From: Dictyostelium discoideum
Taxonomy: Eukaryota
Assembly (NCBI GenBank): GCA_000004695.1
Contig: CM000153.2
Location: 4,128,001 to 4,192,000, forward strand
Direction of reading: 5' to 3'
DNA: 64,000 nucleotides
In this document: piece by piece, positions 39,775-44,639 of the stretch
How positions within the stretch are numbered: the first letter of the stretch is position 1
Layout of the letters: each line of letters opens with the position of its first letter
Translations under genes and position numbers: made by a program
The notes under the pieces: generated by a model
The model's input: only the letters and a program-made list of their open reading frames with translations
Databases searched by the model: none
What the model was told of the DNA's origin: nothing

Positions 39775-39786
39775 ATCACTATTGGA

Positions 39787-39834
<48 letters not shown>

Positions 39835-39935
39835 AAACGATTGTTGGTTCGTTTTTTAATTTTTTCATTTTTTATTTTTTATTTTTTTAATTTTTTTTTT
39901 TTTTTTTTATAATAACTTGTCCAATGGTGATTATT
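39775..39935. promoter_or_regulatory. 19-bp inverted repeat pair carrying a CCAAT-box-like core, upstream of the 2OG-oxygenase array.
   Basis: Seen: 'atcactattggacaagttat' at 39775-39794 and its reverse complement 'ataacttgtccaatggtgat' at 39913-39932, separated by ~120 bp of poly(A/T). The same 'CTTGTCCAAT(A/G)G(C/T)GATTATTTTT' element recurs at 41545-41570 and, degenerated to 'CTTGCTCAATAGTGATTATTTTT', at 43393-43416. Each copy sits ~270-300 bp 5' of an oxygenase gene copy. Confidence 0.5.
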
Positions 39936-40228
39936 TTTTTTTTTTTTTTTTCAGGTATTTAAAAAACAAGTTTCCTGTTAACTTTAAAAGAAAATAGTGA
40001 ATATTAATATTTATACAAATGTAAAATTCAAAATAAATTATTGTTTCTATTTTTATTTTAAATAAATAATTATTTTTATTTTTTATTTTTTTGTGTTAAA
40101 TAATTATTATTTTTTAATTTTTTGTGTTAAAAAAAATAATTAATTATTTGATTATTTAATTTTTTTATTTTTTTTTTTATTCACATATATAAATAATAAT
40201 AATAAAAAAAAAAAAAAAAAAAAAAAAA

Positions 40229-41290
40229 AGATATTACCAACAATAACAACAACAAATGAAATTGAAAGTATACCATGTATTGATTTTTCAATATTAAAAA
40301 ATAATGGTAATGATAATAAAAATGCTTAAGAATTTATTTCAAAAGAAATTAAAAAAGCTTTTATAGAATATGGCTTCTTTTATATTTTAAATCACAGTAT
40401 TGAACAATCTTTAATTGATAGATTAATGGAATTATCAAAAAAGTTTTTTTCATTACCATTAGATGTTAAAATGAAATATAAAATTAATATTGGTGAAAGT
40501 GAATCTAATTTAGGTTATTTTTCACTTGGTCAACATGGAACAGATTATAAAGAGGGTACCTTTTTTAAATTTAGAGACTAATAATAATAATAAAAAAAAT
40601 AATAATACATCAAAAAGAATATCAGAATTATATCCAACAAAAGAAGAAGAAGAGCTATATGATATTGTAGGATTTAAAGATACTTGTGAAACTTTTATGA
40701 AATGTTTAAATCGATTTAGTATTGAGTTGATGGGATTGATCACAATAAATTTAAATTTACCAGAAGATTATTTTAATGATTTATATTTAAATCATCCACA
40801 TTTTAATTTAGGTTTATTAAAATATATGTCATTTGATGATGATGGTAATGGTAATGGTAAAATTACTAAATTTGGTAATGAACCTCATTGTGATTGGGGT
40901 TTATTTACATTACTTTATCAAGATGATGTTGGTGGTTTACAAGCTTTATCAAAATCAACTGGTCATTGGATAAATGTCAAACCAATTAGTGGTTCACTCA
41001 TTTTCAATATTGGTAATGTGATGGAAATCATTACAAGAGGTTATTACATTTCAATGTTTCATCAAGTAATTTATAATACATCTGGTAGAGATCGTTATTC
41101 ATTCCCATTCTTTTTTAATCCTCAACTTGGTAAACCAATAGTTCCAATAAATAATTTAGAAACAACAACGACAACAACAATAACAAAAATTGGAAATTAT
41201 ATAAAAGATCCAAATATATTAAATTTCAAAGGAACTTATAATGATTATCATAACATTGAAATGAATAAATTGTTTAAAAAACAAAATTAA
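40229..41290 (+). pseudogene. 2OG-Fe(II) oxygenase gene copy A, pseudogene.
   Basis: Seen: it is colinear with intact copy B, but ATG is replaced ('aaaaagatatt' versus 'aaaaATGatat'). There is an in-frame TAA ('NDNKNA*', 'gcttaagaattt' versus B 'ggtaaagaaatt'). A +1 frameshift and stop occur at 'ggtaccttttttaaatttagagactaataa' versus B 'ggtacctttttagatttagagactaat'. The 3' two-thirds (ORF 40526..41290) remains open and retains HxD...H ('HCDWGLFTLL','FHQV'). Confidence 0.75.
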
Positions 41291-41820
41291 TAAAAAAAAA
41301 AAAAAAAAGTTAACTAACAATTAATTGCCATTTTTGGTGTTTTGTTTTTTTTTTTTTTTTTTTTTTTTGAAAAACTTAAAATTTAACATTTTAAAAAAAA
41401 TTAGAAAAAAGGGGTAAAGATTTCTTATTTTATAAAAGAAATTGCGACTGTAAACAAAAAATTACTTAATATCTGAAAAAATTTATCTGACCAACCTTTT
41501 TAAAAAATTTTTTTTAAACAGCGATTTTTTTTTTTTTTTAAAACATCTTGTCCAATAGCGATTATTTTTGATATTTAAAAAACAAATTTCGTTAATATTA
41601 ATTTTAAAAGGAAATATTAAATATTAATTTTAAATATTTAATACAAATGTAAAACTAATATATAAATTCTAATTTATTGTTTTTAATTTTTTAATTTTTT
41701 GTTTATTAAATAATTATTAATTTTTTTATTTCCATTCACACAAACAATAATTTTTCATTTTTTTAATTGTGTTAATTGAATACTCTTGTGTGGAAAAAAA
41801 AAAAAAAAAAAAAAAAAAAA

Positions 41821-42846
41821 ATGATATCACCACCAACAACAACAAATGAAATAGAAAGTATACCATGTATTGATTTTTCAATATTAAAAAATAATGCCAA
41901 TGATAATATAAATGGTAAAGAAATTATTTCAAAAGAAATTAAAAAAGCTTGTATAGAATATGGCTTCTTTTATATTTTAAATCACAGTATTGAACAATCT
42001 TTAATTGATAGATTAATGGAATTATCAAAAAAGTTTTTTTCATTACCATTAGATGTTAAAATGAAATATAAAATTAATATTGGTGAAAGTGAATCTAATT
42101 TAGGTTATTTTTCAATTGACCGACATTATACAGATTATAAAGAGGGTACCTTTTTAGATTTAGAGACTAATATTAATAATGCATCAAATGGAATATCAGA
42201 ATTATATCCAACAAAAGAAGAAGAAGAGCTATATGATATTGTAGGATTTAAAGATACTTGTGAAACTTTTATGAAATGTTTAAAACAATTTAGTATTGAG
42301 TTGATGGGATTGATCGCAATAAGTTTAAATTTACCAGAAGATTATTTTAATGATTTGTATTTACAAAATCCAAATTTTATTTTAGGTTTATTAAAATATA
42401 TGTCATTCGATGATGACGGTAGTGATGATAAAACCACCAAATTTGGTAATGAATCTCATTGTGATTGGAGTTTATTTACATTACTTTATCAAGATGATGT
42501 TGGTGGTTTACAAGCTTTATCAAAATCAACTGGTAATTGGATAAATGTCAAACCAATTAGTGGTTCATTCATTTTCAATATTGGAGATATGTTGGAAATC
42601 ATTACAAAAGGTTATTATACTTCAATGTTTCATCAAGTAATTTATAATACATCTGGTAGAGATCGTTATTCATTCCCATTCTTTTTTAATCCTCAACTTG
42701 ATAAACAACTAATTCCGATAAACAATTTAGAAACAACAACAACATCCAAAATTGGAAATTTTGTAAAGGATCCAAATATATTAAATTTCAAAGGAACTTA
42801 TAATGATTATCATATTATTCAAATGGAAAAATCATTTAATAAATAA
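41821..42846 (+). CDS. 2-oxoglutarate/Fe(II)-dependent dioxygenase (flavonol-synthase/IPNS-like), intact copy B, 341 aa, single exon.
   Basis: Seen: ATG at 41821 (the ORF track starts earlier at an alternative codon inside poly-A). Established knowledge: the 2OG-FeII_Oxy facial triad and 2OG-binding residues are present: 'HCDWSLFTLL' (H-x-D), 'FHQVIYN' (second H) and 'RDRYSFPFF' (R-x-S). The N-terminal DIOX_N-like block is 'IPCIDFSIL...EIKKACIEYGFFYILNHSI'. Confidence 0.85.
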   Translation: MISPPTTTNEIESIPCIDFSILKNNANDNINGKEIISKEIKKACIEYGFFYILNHSIEQSLIDRLMELSKKFFSLPLDVKMKYKINIGESESNLGYFSIDRHYTDYKEGTFLDLETNINNASNGISELYPTKEEEELYDIVGFKDTCETFMKCLKQFSIELMGLIAISLNLPEDYFNDLYLQNPNFILGLLKYMSFDDDGSDDKTTKFGNESHCDWSLFTLLYQDDVGGLQALSKSTGNWINVKPISGSFIFNIGDMLEIITKGYYTSMFHQVIYNTSGRDRYSFPFFFNPQLDKQLIPINNLETTTTSKIGNFVKDPNILNFKGTYNDYHIIQMEKSFNK

Positions 42847-43133
42847 AATTAATTTTTTTTTTTTTTTAAATTTCAAACAATTATAAAGGAGAAAAGATAG
42901 CTTTTTTTATAAAATTAAAATTGAGAGTGATCTATCGCATTTTTATTTTAAAAAAAGTATTTTCACTTAAAAAAACGAATTTATTTATTTAAATGAAAAT
43001 AATTTCAAATAAAATGAAATTATGAAAAAAAAAAATAAAAAAAATAAAATAAAATAAAGTTATTAAATTTTTTATAAAATAAAAGAACATTAAAAAATTA
43101 AATTATAAGAAAATAGTTAATTTTATTGATTAG

Positions 43134-43200
43134 ATTTCAAAGGAACTTATAATGATTATTATAACATTGAAATGAACTAATTATTTAAAAAACAAAATTA
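43134..43200 (+). pseudogene. Isolated 3' fragment of an oxygenase copy (A-like terminus).
   Basis: Seen: 'atttcaaaggaacttataatgattattataacattgaaatgaactaattatttaaaaaacaaaattaag' matches the last ~70 nt of copy A. It is followed by the same 3'-flank block ('ttaattgccatttttggtgtt...gaaaaacttaaaatttaacatttt') that follows copy A at 41315-41400. Confidence 0.6.
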
Positions 43201-43262
43201 AGAAAAAAAATCAAAAAAAAAAAGTTATCAAACAAACCATTAATTGCCATTTTTGGTGTTAT

Positions 43263-43297
<35 letters not shown>

Positions 43298-43540
43298 AAA
43301 AACTTAAAATTTAACATTTTCAAAAACAATTGGAAAAAAGGGGTAAAGATTCCTTTCTTTATTAAAAAAATTATTTTATCCGACCTTAAAAACATCTTGC
43401 TCAATAGTGATTATTTTTAGGATATCTAAAAACCAAGTTCATTAATATTAATTTTAAAAGAAAATAGTATAAATAAATGTAAAATTAATATGTAAATTCT
43501 AATTTATTTTATTTAATTTTTATTTTTTAATTTTTTGTGT

Positions 43541-44350
43541 TAAATCATAGTATTGAACAATCTTTAATTGATAGATTAATGGAATTATAAAGAGGGTACT
43601 TTTTTTAGATTTAGAGACTAATTATAATAAAAAATCAAATGGAATATCAGAATTATATCCAACAAAAGAAGAAGAAGAGCTATATGATATTGTAGGATTT
43701 AAAGATACTTGTGAAACTTTTATGAAATGTTTAAAACAATTAAGTATTGAATTGATGGGATTTATTGCAATAAGTTTAAATTTACCAGAAGATTATTTTA
43801 ATGATTTATGAATCATTTTTACAAATCCAAATTTTAATTTAGGTTTATTAAAATATATGTCATTTGATGATGATGATGATGATGATGATGATAAAATTAC
43901 TAAATTCGGTATTAACCTCATTGTGATTGGAGTTTATTTACATTACTTTATCAAGATGATGTTGGTGGTTTACAAGCTTTCTCAAAATCAACTGGTAATT
44001 GGATAAATGTCAAACCAATTTGTGGTTCATTCGTTTTCAATATTGGAGATATGTTGGAAATCATTACAAAAGGTTATTATACTTCAATGTTTCATCAAGT
44101 AATTTATAATACATCTGGTAGAGATCGTTATTCATTCCCATTCTTTTTTAATTCTCAATTCGATAAACCAATAATTTAGAAACAACAACAACAACATCAA
44201 CAACAAAAATTGGAAATTATGAAAAAGATCCAAATAATTCCTATAAATAATTTAGAAACAACACCAACAACCACAACAAAAATTGGAAATTATGAAAAAG
44301 ATCCAAATATATTAAATTTCAAAGGAACTTATAAATAATGATTATCATAT
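43541..44350 (+). pseudogene. 2OG-Fe(II) oxygenase copy C, degraded pseudogene.
   Basis: Seen: it begins mid-gene ('cacagtattgaacaatctttaattgatagattaatggaattat'). There is an internal deletion straight into 'aagagggtac'. Multiple frameshifts or stops occur at 'gatttatgaatcattttt', a (GAT)8 expansion and 'ggtattaacctcattgtg'. The terminal 'aataatttagaaacaaca..aaaattggaaattatgaaaaagatccaaata' segment is duplicated. Confidence 0.7.
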
Positions 44351-44639
44351 TATTCAAATGAAAAAATCATTTAAATAAAATTAAGTTTTTTTTTTTTCTA
44401 AACAATCTAAAATTATCCAAGATTTTTTTTTTTTCTTCTCAGGCAATCTAGATACCATTTTCGTGTTTTTTTTTTTTTTTTTGAAACTTAAATTTCAACA
44501 CTGTCAAAAACAATTAGAAATGAGAAAAGATTGCTTTTTTTTATAATTAAAATTGATCGCTTTTTTATTTTAAAAAATGTATTTTCACTTAAAAAAAAGA
44601 ATTTATTTATTTAATAATTTCAAATAAAGTAAAATTATG

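Follow-up and report, generated by a model that had tools for sequence, protein, structure and literature searches.

Known relatives

The closest characterised relative of the oxygenases described here is acoA (DDB_G0277497), an ACC-oxidase homologue implicated in ethylene synthesis, and DDB_G0286203 and DDB_G0286201 are listed as its uncharacterised potential ACO paralogues (PMC11211550). Both of the latter genes are located in the window, a 64-kb stretch of Dictyostelium discoideum AX4 chromosome 4. DDB_G0286203 (copy B below) is 43% identical to acoA over 97% of the length, and both contain the PF14226 and PF03171 domains and the HxD...H and RxS residues. However, acoA is a paralogue on another chromosome rather than an orthologue, nothing is conserved in common between the two promoters, and acoA is a single-copy gene in the loci fetched, whereas B belongs to an array.

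The best matches of B among solved structures are two bacterial proteins of the IPNS family ("iron-ascorbate oxidoreductase"), 9ovh_A and 6jyv_A (E = 2e-53 and 2e-48, respectively). Although they come from a different kingdom, they align with B over the full length, including the metal and carboxylate ligands; metagenomic bacterial homologues are 33–36% identical to B. None of the NCBIfam equivalog models matches B. Plant 2OG oxygenases of the DOXC class (ACC oxidase 1w9y, anthocyanidin synthase 1gp4, F6'H 4xae, T6ODM 5o7y) and fungal isopenicillin N synthase (1bk0) share the superfamily and the fold signature with B, although the plant enzymes score 76–100 bits and IPNS 49 bits, far below 9ovh (185 bits). 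Hence the description of the enzyme as flavonol-synthase/IPNS-like, given in the first-pass annotation, holds as a superfamily label but not as a functional assignment, the nearest characterised relative being acoA.

Another point of comparison is provided by birth-and-death tandem families and reciprocal resolution of duplicates. The locus shares with them lineage-specific duplication, lesions, neutral dN/dS in the dead copies and differing survivors, but on a very small scale, as only one of its four units survives. We consider it, with a probability of about 85%, to be nothing more unusual than a recent tandem amplification of a single iron oxygenase gene of the ACC-oxidase/IPNS family, in which B is the only intact AX4 copy. 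The content of the locus is largely annotated already.

Organization of the array

The locus was compared in AX4, a second D. discoideum genome (L001), two D. cf. discoideum genomes (L002 and L003) and Dictyostelium citrinum (L004). The first-pass annotation described 2OG-Fe(II)/IPNS-family oxygenase genes arranged in tandem, one of them intact and two or three decayed, and its features were recovered to within a few bases. Upstream of the array lies an ORF encoding a RrnaAD/TFB1M-like rRNA adenine dimethylase (38229..39686, minus strand; Pfam PF00398, E=1.5e-54). It is transcribed divergently from copy A, the common intergenic region being 542 bp, and this neighbour is syntenic at all five Dictyostelium loci compared.

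According to self-BLAST, the A unit (40204–41291) is 90.8% identical to the B unit (41796–42853), and copy C is nearer to B (91.1%, 42134–42782 versus 43584–44239) than to A (87.9%). The two alternating types of 3' flank suggested initially are real. Flanks of type alpha occupy 41291..41524 (plus strand), after A, and, as seen by self-BLAST, 43202..43385 (plus strand), after fragment D, the 3' end of A with its flank (41218–41443) matching D with its flank (43129–43372) at 86%. Flanks of type beta occupy 42847..43128 (plus strand), after B, and 44380..44830 (plus strand), between C and the downstream gene (self-BLAST and comparison with L001 and L002), with 83% identity between 42875–43058 and 44508–44673. 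In L002, the single-copy gene is followed by a 3' flank homologous to the latter type (11118–11350 there versus 42875–43127). Promoter unit 2 occupies 41525..41820 on the plus strand (self-BLAST, motif match and comparison of promoter units), and promoter unit 3, whose 3' part is truncated, 43386..43542 on the same strand (self-BLAST and motif match).

The intact copy

Copy B (41821..42846, plus strand) is 100% identical to DDB_G0286203. Its reading as an intact 341-aa dioxygenase with the HxD...H and RxS motifs agrees with the Pfam domains, PF14226 (DIOX_N) and PF03171 (2OG-FeII_Oxy), and with the alignment to 9ovh and 6jyv, which assigns HxD to H213/D215, the distal histidine to H271 and RxS to R282/S284. 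The dN/dS ratio of B versus its orthologues is 0.27–0.35, and among the intact copies it is 0.23–0.40. Judged by these two features, the open frame and purifying selection, B is probably the working gene of AX4. The protein would bind Fe(II) via H213/D215/H271, R282/S284 would hold a carboxylate belonging either to 2-oxoglutarate or to an ACC-like substrate, and the enzyme would oxidise a small molecule. The B-type copies have a derived loop, with IDRHY replacing LGQHG, which is the sole sign of functional diversification.

The decayed copies

Copy A (40228..41290, plus strand), annotated as DDB_G0286201, is an A-type pseudogene by its lesions and dN/dS. The loss of the start, the stop and the frameshift noted earlier are all present: AAG replaces ATG at 40228–40230, an in-frame TAA occupies codon 33 (40327–40329), and an additional T at about 40561, within a T-run, leads to a stop at 40579–40581. 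L001_c1 has the AAG start in common with AX4_A, as well as a +3 insertion at codon 5.

Copy C (43531..44379, plus strand), a B-type pseudogene by self-BLAST, lesions and the gene tree, has no start codon, and its first ~50 codons are missing. Consistent with its description as an internally deleted, frameshifted remnant, it is disrupted by an internal deletion of 113 nt, nine or more frameshifting indels and an in-frame TAA, the total coding loss being about 260 nt. It also contains an internal tandem duplication of about 70 bp (44170–44239 and 44246–44313). The isolated 3' fragment of a fourth unit is located at 43129..43201 (plus strand; self-BLAST). This 73-bp stub, fragment D, comprises the ~24 terminal codons of an A-type copy, the remainder of which has been deleted, and has a flank of type alpha; it is 86% identical to A with the flank included and 84.9% identical to B over 73 nt. 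It is also found in L001 (8858–8976). The dN/dS ratio is 0.94 for A–C and 0.72 for A–B, supporting near-neutral evolution of the pseudogenes, as compared to the intact copies.

The upstream motif and the palindrome

The promoter motif was initially described as CTTGTCCAAT(A/G)G(C/T)GATTATTTTT; its core is the 14-mer TCCAATAGTGATTA. The 64-kb window contains four matches, at 39768–39790 (minus strand), 39916–39938, 41547–41569 and 43396–43418 (all plus strand), versus none in 100 shuffles. The motif of unit 1, CTTGTCCAATGGTGATTATTTTT (39911..39938, plus strand; motif match and inverted-pair alignment), is at the same time the right arm of a palindrome. That of unit 2 is CTTGTCCAATAGCGATTATTTTT (41547–41569), and that of unit 3, CTTGCTCAATAGTGATTATTTTT (43396–43418), is degenerate, with two mismatches, CCAAT reading CTCAAT. 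The motif is situated 291–313 nt upstream of the former start of A and 252–274 nt upstream of the start of B (~270–300 bp was proposed for every unit); C has no start codon from which to count.

The palindrome (39755..39951, 197 bp), located in the intergenic region between A and the dimethylase gene, is imperfect and consists of an A-run, a central element and a T-run, the outer arms being formed by the motif. Its 83-nt arms, 39755–39837 and 39869–39951, are 86% complementary, and the predicted DNA fold has the energy of −59.8 kcal/mol (z = −10.95 versus shuffles). The inverted pair of motifs, previously given as 19 bp, is slightly longer, 23 nt with one mismatch (39773–39795 and 39911–39933). 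The left arm, TAATCACTATTGGACAAGTTATT (39773..39795, minus strand), lies 87–109 bp upstream of the RrnaAD ATG; its 14-mer is perfect in AX4 and at the corresponding site of both L001 and L002. The central element AAAAAACGATTGTTGGTTCGTTTTTT (39832..39857), recognised by its conservation, is the sole part of the palindrome retained in all five genomes. It is formed by a 9-bp stem, AAAAAACGA/TCGTTTTTT, with a variable loop of 8–9 nt.

The motif is present in L001 and L002, degenerate in L003 (CTTTCCCAAAAGTAAAT, no CCAAT) and absent from the orthologous promoter of L004. Neither the D. purpureum homologue nor acoA has it in the upstream region. The motif is real, and its absence from orthologous promoters, named beforehand as evidence against a conserved promoter element, was observed in part: two of the three orthologous single-copy promoters have it degenerate or lack it. 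Divergence from the consensus is about 3% for the motif and no higher for two other promoter blocks or for the coding sequence, and the blocks TTAAYTTTAAAAGRAAAT and ATACAAATGTAAAA are conserved more widely. The CCAAT pentamer itself occurs here about 3.5 times per kb. Homology between the promoters of the units begins at ~39894/41525, some 20 bp 5' of the motif; hence each unit has the motif because the duplicated units start just upstream of it. As far as can be judged from the sequences, recurrence of the motif is mainly inheritance with duplication, not independent conservation. The duplication units would begin in the T-run of the palindromic bidirectional promoter region. The motif may nevertheless act as a transcription-factor site, in either orientation.

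Alternative explanations

The motif could instead be a CCAAT-type promoter box driving transcription of the dioxygenase genes, which selection maintains in each unit. This is possible, although we consider it doubtful. The number of matches (four versus zero expected in the window) and the perfect 14-mer in six of nine instances from three genomes agree with it, as does the motif being a G/C-containing island amid 85–90% A+T. However, at the identity of 96.8% between AX4 and L001 and 93.2% between AX4 and L002 survival of a 14-mer is expected by default. The motif is degenerate in L003 and missing in L004, the gene there being nonetheless intact and under purifying selection, it is lacking near the D. 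purpureum homologue and acoA, and other promoter blocks are conserved more widely. As the motif borders the duplicated unit, it is inherited by descent. Besides, the NF-Y consensus is RRCCAATSR, and the flanks in TGT-CCAAT-AG fit it poorly. On the other hand, in L001 one instance has been inverted in place and is still perfect (9742–9755), and in three genomes (AX4, L001 and L002) an inverted pair surrounds the conserved centre; this retention hints at a function beyond simple inheritance.

The 23-nt arms with their single mismatch, present together in AX4, L001 and L002 and both absent or degenerate in L003 and L004, as well as the strong fold potential, resemble terminal inverted repeats of a small foldback or MITE-like element inserted between the two genes in the common ancestor of the former three genomes. 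But L003 and L004, in which the arms are lacking, have the sequence between them conserved, including the central element and the A- and T-runs, so the arms do not bound an insertion; the sequence shows no target-site duplication, and no further copy of the 13-mer is found in ~170 kb of Dictyostelium DNA outside the locus. Such an origin, with one arm later carried along by the gene duplications, is improbable. Less probable still is that A and C are functional and their lesions are introns or sequencing errors, as implied by the DDB_G0286201 model. The databases do contain this 281-aa protein-coding model, A retains HxD, H and RxS, and its frameshift falls in a T-run. However, the protein is reproduced only with an internal Met (40426) as the start and a 19-nt GT..AG gap (40556–40574) removed as an intron, and it lacks the first ~64 residues of DIOX_N, this domain then scoring 23.2 bits, below the cutoff of 27.3 bits. 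The ATG-to-AAG change and TAA are substitutions, not homopolymer errors, the independent L001 genome has the same AAG, dN/dS is close to 1, and C has the coding losses and frameshifts listed above.

History of the array

Tandem amplification of a single gene also agrees with the other genomes. At the syntenic site, L002, L003 and L004 carry a single gene, while L001 has the same array as AX4 with the other B-type copy intact: L001_c2 carries four frameshifts, three of them outside homopolymers, and L001_c3 is intact. In the gene tree, the A-type clade (AX4_A and L001_c1, 92%) and the B-type clade (AX4_B, AX4_C, L001_c2 and L001_c3, 96.5% bootstrap) are nested inside the single-copy orthologues. 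Orthology of C and L001_c3 is suggested by position and flanks, its bootstrap being only 45%. Synonymous distances within AX4 (A–B 0.092, B–C 0.085; 11–25 synonymous differences underlie such estimates) are not larger than that between the genomes (B–c2 0.143), and hence gene conversion or sampling error could blur the order of events.

The flanks and the gene tree indicate a path from a single gene to an A/B pair and then to A-B-D-C. The ancestral gene, a non-haem iron oxygenase of the ACC-oxidase/IPNS family adjacent to the divergent rRNA adenine dimethylase, would have been amplified in the D. discoideum lineage, yielding a B-type copy and an A-type one that stayed in the original place and kept the ancestral promoter. 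Block duplication of this pair would produce A-B-A'-B'. Before the split of the two D. discoideum genomes, A' would have been cut to stub D and A would have lost its ATG. After the split, A would have accumulated more lesions in AX4 and B' would have been destroyed, becoming C, while in L001 A would have been truncated, B frameshifted and B' kept.

The birth-and-death dynamics suggested at the outset is borne out by the single-copy sisters, the near-neutral pseudogenes and the different intact copy in L001. Very probably, each of the two D. discoideum genomes has retained exactly one working gene, that of AX4 being B, and the decay of the duplicates has been reciprocal.

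Organization of the dioxygenase array

The window has a G+C content of about 20%; its A/T runs are long, and poly-Q/N tracts occur in the coding sequence. The repeat structure was established by self-BLAST of the 39.6–45.0 kb region, which yielded four matches. The unit of copy A (40204–41291) matches that of copy B (41796–42853) at 90.8%, and a segment of copy B (42134–42782) matches copy C (43584–44239) at 91.1%. The 3' end of copy A with its flank (41218–41443) matches 43129–43372 at 86%, the latter interval including fragment D (43129–43201), an A-type copy reduced to its final ~24 codons. 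The flank of copy B (42875–43058) matches that of copy C (44508–44673) at 83%. Hence two flavours of 3' flank alternate along the array, alpha after the A-type units and beta after the B-type ones, as proposed in the first-pass annotation.

The open reading frame of copy B (41821–42846) is intact and its product is 100% identical to DDB_G0286203 of D. discoideum AX4, which places the window on chromosome 4 of this finished and annotated reference genome. Copy A has AAG at 40228–40230 where ATG is expected, a premature TAA at codon 33 (40327–40329), and a T inserted near 40561, after which the frame runs into a stop at 40579–40581. Copy C has lost the first ~50 codons and, by an internal deletion, a further 113 nt; what is left is disrupted by an in-frame TAA and by at least nine indels that shift the frame, and it includes a tandem duplication of about 70 bp inside the copy. 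Every feature listed for the tandem cluster in the first-pass annotation was found, that is, one intact copy, the start, stop and frameshift lesions of copy A, the internally deleted and frameshifted copy C, and an isolated 3' fragment of a fourth unit.

Copies A, C and D are homologous to the functional paralogue, flanks and promoter included. The dN/dS ratio is 0.94 for A and C, 0.72 for A and B, and 0.55 for B and C, as compared with 0.23–0.40 for intact genes, all these values coming from small counts. Paralogue homology, disabling lesions and relaxed selection characterize A, C and D, at the level of sequence, as unprocessed (duplication-derived) pseudogenes. The mismatch-free run between A and B spans 163 nt. 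Gene conversion was considered as its source, but the runs of two copies from the second D. discoideum genome, L001_c1 and L001_c3, are comparably long across that segment, so the run probably marks a slowly evolving segment and is no clear evidence of conversion.

Copy A is annotated as the gene DDB_G0286201. Its 281-aa protein is exactly reproduced only when translation starts at an internal Met at 40426 and 40556–40574 is spliced out. This “intron” is a 19-nt GT..AG interval that bypasses the frameshift of copy A; real Dictyostelium introns average about 150 nt, and 19 nt is far shorter. The model is devoid of the first ~64 residues, and its PF14226 score, 23.2 bits, is under the gathering cutoff of 27.3. 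The lost start, the premature stop and the dN/dS ratios of A relative to B and C make this copy a pseudogene. Hence DDB_G0286201 is almost certainly a pseudogene held up by a 19-nt pseudo-intron, and its gene model looks like an artefact of annotation. Both DDB_G0286203 and DDB_G0286201 have been named as uncharacterised “potential ACO enzymes” (PMC11211550), the only publication on these gene identifiers that our literature search returned. Given the pseudogene status of DDB_G0286201, it is DDB_G0286203 alone that matters for knockouts directed at the ethylene synthesis remaining in acoA-null cells.

History of the duplications

The syntenic locus was compared in four further genomes: a second D. 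discoideum genome (L001), two D. cf. discoideum genomes (L002 and L003) and D. citrinum (L004). The gene order is the same in all four: an AAT-family gene (+), the rRNA adenine dimethylase (RrnaAD) gene (−), the dioxygenase (+) and a downstream gene (+). There is one dioxygenase copy in each of L002, L003 and L004; L001 has three and a D-like stub. In L003, an extra gene of 678 aa without a Pfam match (11144–13180, −) is situated between the dioxygenase and the downstream gene, and it is not there in the other four genomes.

In the NJ tree, AX4_A clusters with L001_c1 (92%), and AX4_B, AX4_C, L001_c2 and L001_c3 form one group (96.5%), both groups being nested within the single-copy orthologues. 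The beta flank is the ancestral 3' flank, positions 11118–11350 of L002 matching 42875–43127. Taken together, the tree and the alternating flanks point to a single ancestral gene that would have given rise to an A/B pair, which would then have been block-duplicated to A-B-A'-B'. AX4_A and L001_c1 share the AAG start as well as a +3 insertion at codon 5, and both genomes have the D stub; hence the loss of the ATG of A and of most of A' (left as D) would be older than the divergence of AX4 and L001. AX4 has an intact copy at position 2 (B) and a destroyed one at position 4 (C). L001 shows the opposite: c2, at position 2, carries four frameshifts, of which three lie outside homopolymers, and c3 (355 aa), at position 4, is intact. 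Each genome thus retains one apparently working copy, at different positions, the pattern of reciprocal decay in which, after the split, AX4 would have destroyed position 4 and L001 position 2. The birth-and-death cluster suggested earlier is not only borne out but extended, by a lineage-specific amplification and a reciprocal pattern of decay.

The protein encoded by copy B

Copy B scores 77.7 bits with DIOX_N (PF14226; cutoff 27.3) and 81.2 bits with 2OG-FeII_Oxy (PF03171; cutoff 23). Its best solved relatives are bacterial IPNS-family proteins, 9ovh_A (E = 2e-53, 185 bits) and 6jyv_A (E = 2e-48), aligned over the full length. In these alignments H213, D215 and H271, as well as R282 and S284, fall on the metal and carboxylate ligands of 9ovh and 6jyv, and thus the HxD...H and RxS motifs noted earlier are in place. 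Judged by its sequence, with E about 1e-53 to solved structures, copy B unambiguously belongs to the 2OG-Fe(II) oxygenase superfamily and has the DIOX_N + 2OG-FeII_Oxy (IPNS/ACCO/DOXC-like) architecture. From family membership, it is predicted to oxidise a small molecule by an Fe(II)-dependent mechanism.

A narrower assignment did not follow. The plant DOXC enzymes score 76–100 bits against B, the plant ACCO 1w9y 86 bits versus 185 for the bacterial homologue, and the closest characterised relative, the D. discoideum paralogue acoA (DDB_G0277497), is 43% identical and has orthologues of its own at a different locus. Hence no orthology of B to a characterised ACC oxidase was found. The IPNS 1bk0 yields 48.8 bits (E = 6.7e-12), far under many other family members, so there is no IPNS-specific similarity above the rest of the superfamily. 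Of the flavonol-synthase/IPNS-like class proposed at first, the superfamily domains and ligands stand, whereas the resemblance to IPNS in particular does not. The NCBIfam search returned no specific family for B, and an exact-sequence look-up of the protein gave no record from additional strains.

The loop at 42109–42129 (B codons ~97–103) reads FSIDRHYT or IDKHCT in B-type copies, a derived state; the equivalent segment (40519–40539 in A) is FSLGQHG(T/P/S) in the A-type copies and in every single-copy orthologue. No other cluster of amino-acid changes separates the surviving duplicates from the ancestral type.

The upstream motif

The CCAAT-containing upstream motif has four matches in the window and none in 100 shuffles, and it is indeed shared by the units. 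Of nine instances of its 14-mer core TCCAATAGTGATTA, six are perfect, and the three AX4 promoter copies each differ by one or two mismatches. The CCAAT pentamer is present in three of the four AX4 motif copies, unit 3 reading CTCAAT; at a density of about 3.5 per kb in the sequence, the pentamer by itself is uninformative.

Two explanations of the recurrence have to be weighed. The homology between the promoter units starts at about 39894/41525, just ~20 bp upstream of the motif, and hence the motif was necessarily carried in every duplication. At the orthologous identity of 93–97% (AX4 versus L001 and L002) the 14-mer survives by default, and it is lost at the next level of divergence: L001 and L002 have the motif, L003 a degenerate form of it (the aligned position reads CTTTCCCAAAAGTAAAT), and D. 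citrinum lacks it, despite the dioxygenase genes of the latter two being intact and constrained. The promoter blocks TTAAYTTTAAAAGRAAAT and ATACAAATGTAAAA are conserved more widely. Alternatively, the motif may be a real factor-binding site active in either orientation. In L001, the motif upstream of the intact copy has been inverted in place (9731–9759, ~29 bp) with the 14-mer (9742–9755) perfectly kept, and the inverted motif pair is present in three genomes. We regard such a site as possible but somewhat doubtful; the recurrence would mainly reflect inheritance. The conserved promoter element proposed earlier is supported in part: as a CCAAT box of the NF-Y type, it is retained in the orthologous promoters of L001 and L002 but not in those of L003 and L004.

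The acoA promoter contains ACTATTGG, the reverse complement of CCAATAGT, ~350 bp upstream of the ATG. The background frequency of the 8-mer of this box is about 1 per 34 kb; the D. citrinum aco promoter, alignable at 76% identity over 660 bp, does not conserve the box, and a shared aco promoter box was dismissed as chance. Directly 3' of the motif, L002 has a GC-richer insertion of ~115 bp (9594–9710) with a GGGGTCGC...GCGACCC inverted repeat, which has no match in Rfam and does not recur in the fetched loci.

The palindrome upstream of copy A

The inverted motif pair at copy A, described earlier as 19 bp, is real and measures 23 nt with one mismatch (39773–39795 and 39911–39933). Both arms lie within an imperfect palindrome of 197 bp (39755–39951; 83-nt arms, 86% complementary), whose fold has z = −10.95 versus shuffles. 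The centre, AAAAAACGATTGTTGGTTCGTTTTTT (39832–39857), is a 9-bp inverted repeat AAAAAACGA-loop-TCGTTTTTT with a variable loop of 8–9 nt, that is, AAAAAACGAN(8-9)TCGTTTTTT, and contains two rare CG dinucleotides. It is the only part of the palindrome conserved in all five genomes, D. citrinum included; the CCAAT arms are not. For a putative bidirectional promoter of the dioxygenase and the divergent RrnaAD gene (38229..39686, −), AAAAAACGATTGTTGGTTCGTTTTTT is the best candidate core, and promoter dissection is best begun at this CG-containing core, not at the CCAAT arms.

Downstream of copy C, a second big A-run/T-run palindrome (44635–44959, ~320 bp, 78%) consists of a 66-nt poly-A followed by T-rich runs and resembles the one upstream of copy A. 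Thus the cluster is bracketed by cruciform-prone sequence.

A mobile-element origin of the arms is unlikely, since the sequence between them is ancestral. Rfam gave no match for the whole window at the gathering threshold or for the L002 intergenic region at E ≤ 1, and ARAGORN found no tRNA; hence neither a known RNA gene nor a tRNA-linked element accounts for the motif and palindrome. In the literature on Dictyostelium bidirectional intergenic promoters we found no paper on this element.

The tandem duplications start within the T-run of the palindrome. One could imagine TCCAATAGTGATTA as a young orientation-independent cis-regulatory module of the D. discoideum clade coupling a mitochondrial-type rRNA dimethylase gene to an oxygenase, its inverted pair surrounding a deeply conserved hairpin-like centre and the cruciform-prone palindrome serving as the breakpoint of tandem duplication. 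We consider this combination improbable; if true, the locus would owe its regulation and its instability alike to one structure.

Genomic neighbourhood and implications

The upstream neighbour (36789–38135, +) matches PF03417 (27.5 bits), the acyl-CoA:6-aminopenicillanic acid acyltransferase / peptidase C45 family. In all five genomes it lies one gene away from the “IPNS-family” oxygenase, an arrangement that recalls pcbC-penDE. However, the similarity of B to IPNS is only distant, and in D. purpureum the homologue has a different context; the proximity is probably a coincidence. The gene at 52306–53976 (+) and the downstream genes in L001–L004 are ComC-like (LRR_ComC / TIG / EGF_TEN); they form tandem pairs in some other genomes, and thus represent another locally duplicated family nearby.

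The genes considered here had been annotated and cited in publications before, and the phenomenon is an ordinary one. The results are of modest practical value and leave the knowledge of 2OG oxygenases and of gene-family evolution unchanged. Two by-products are useful: the promoter core that is truly conserved has been identified, and DDB_G0286201, listed among potential ACO enzymes, has been recognized as almost certainly a pseudogene. The locus itself is a compact, well-resolved case of reciprocal loss of tandem duplicates in two D. discoideum lineages.
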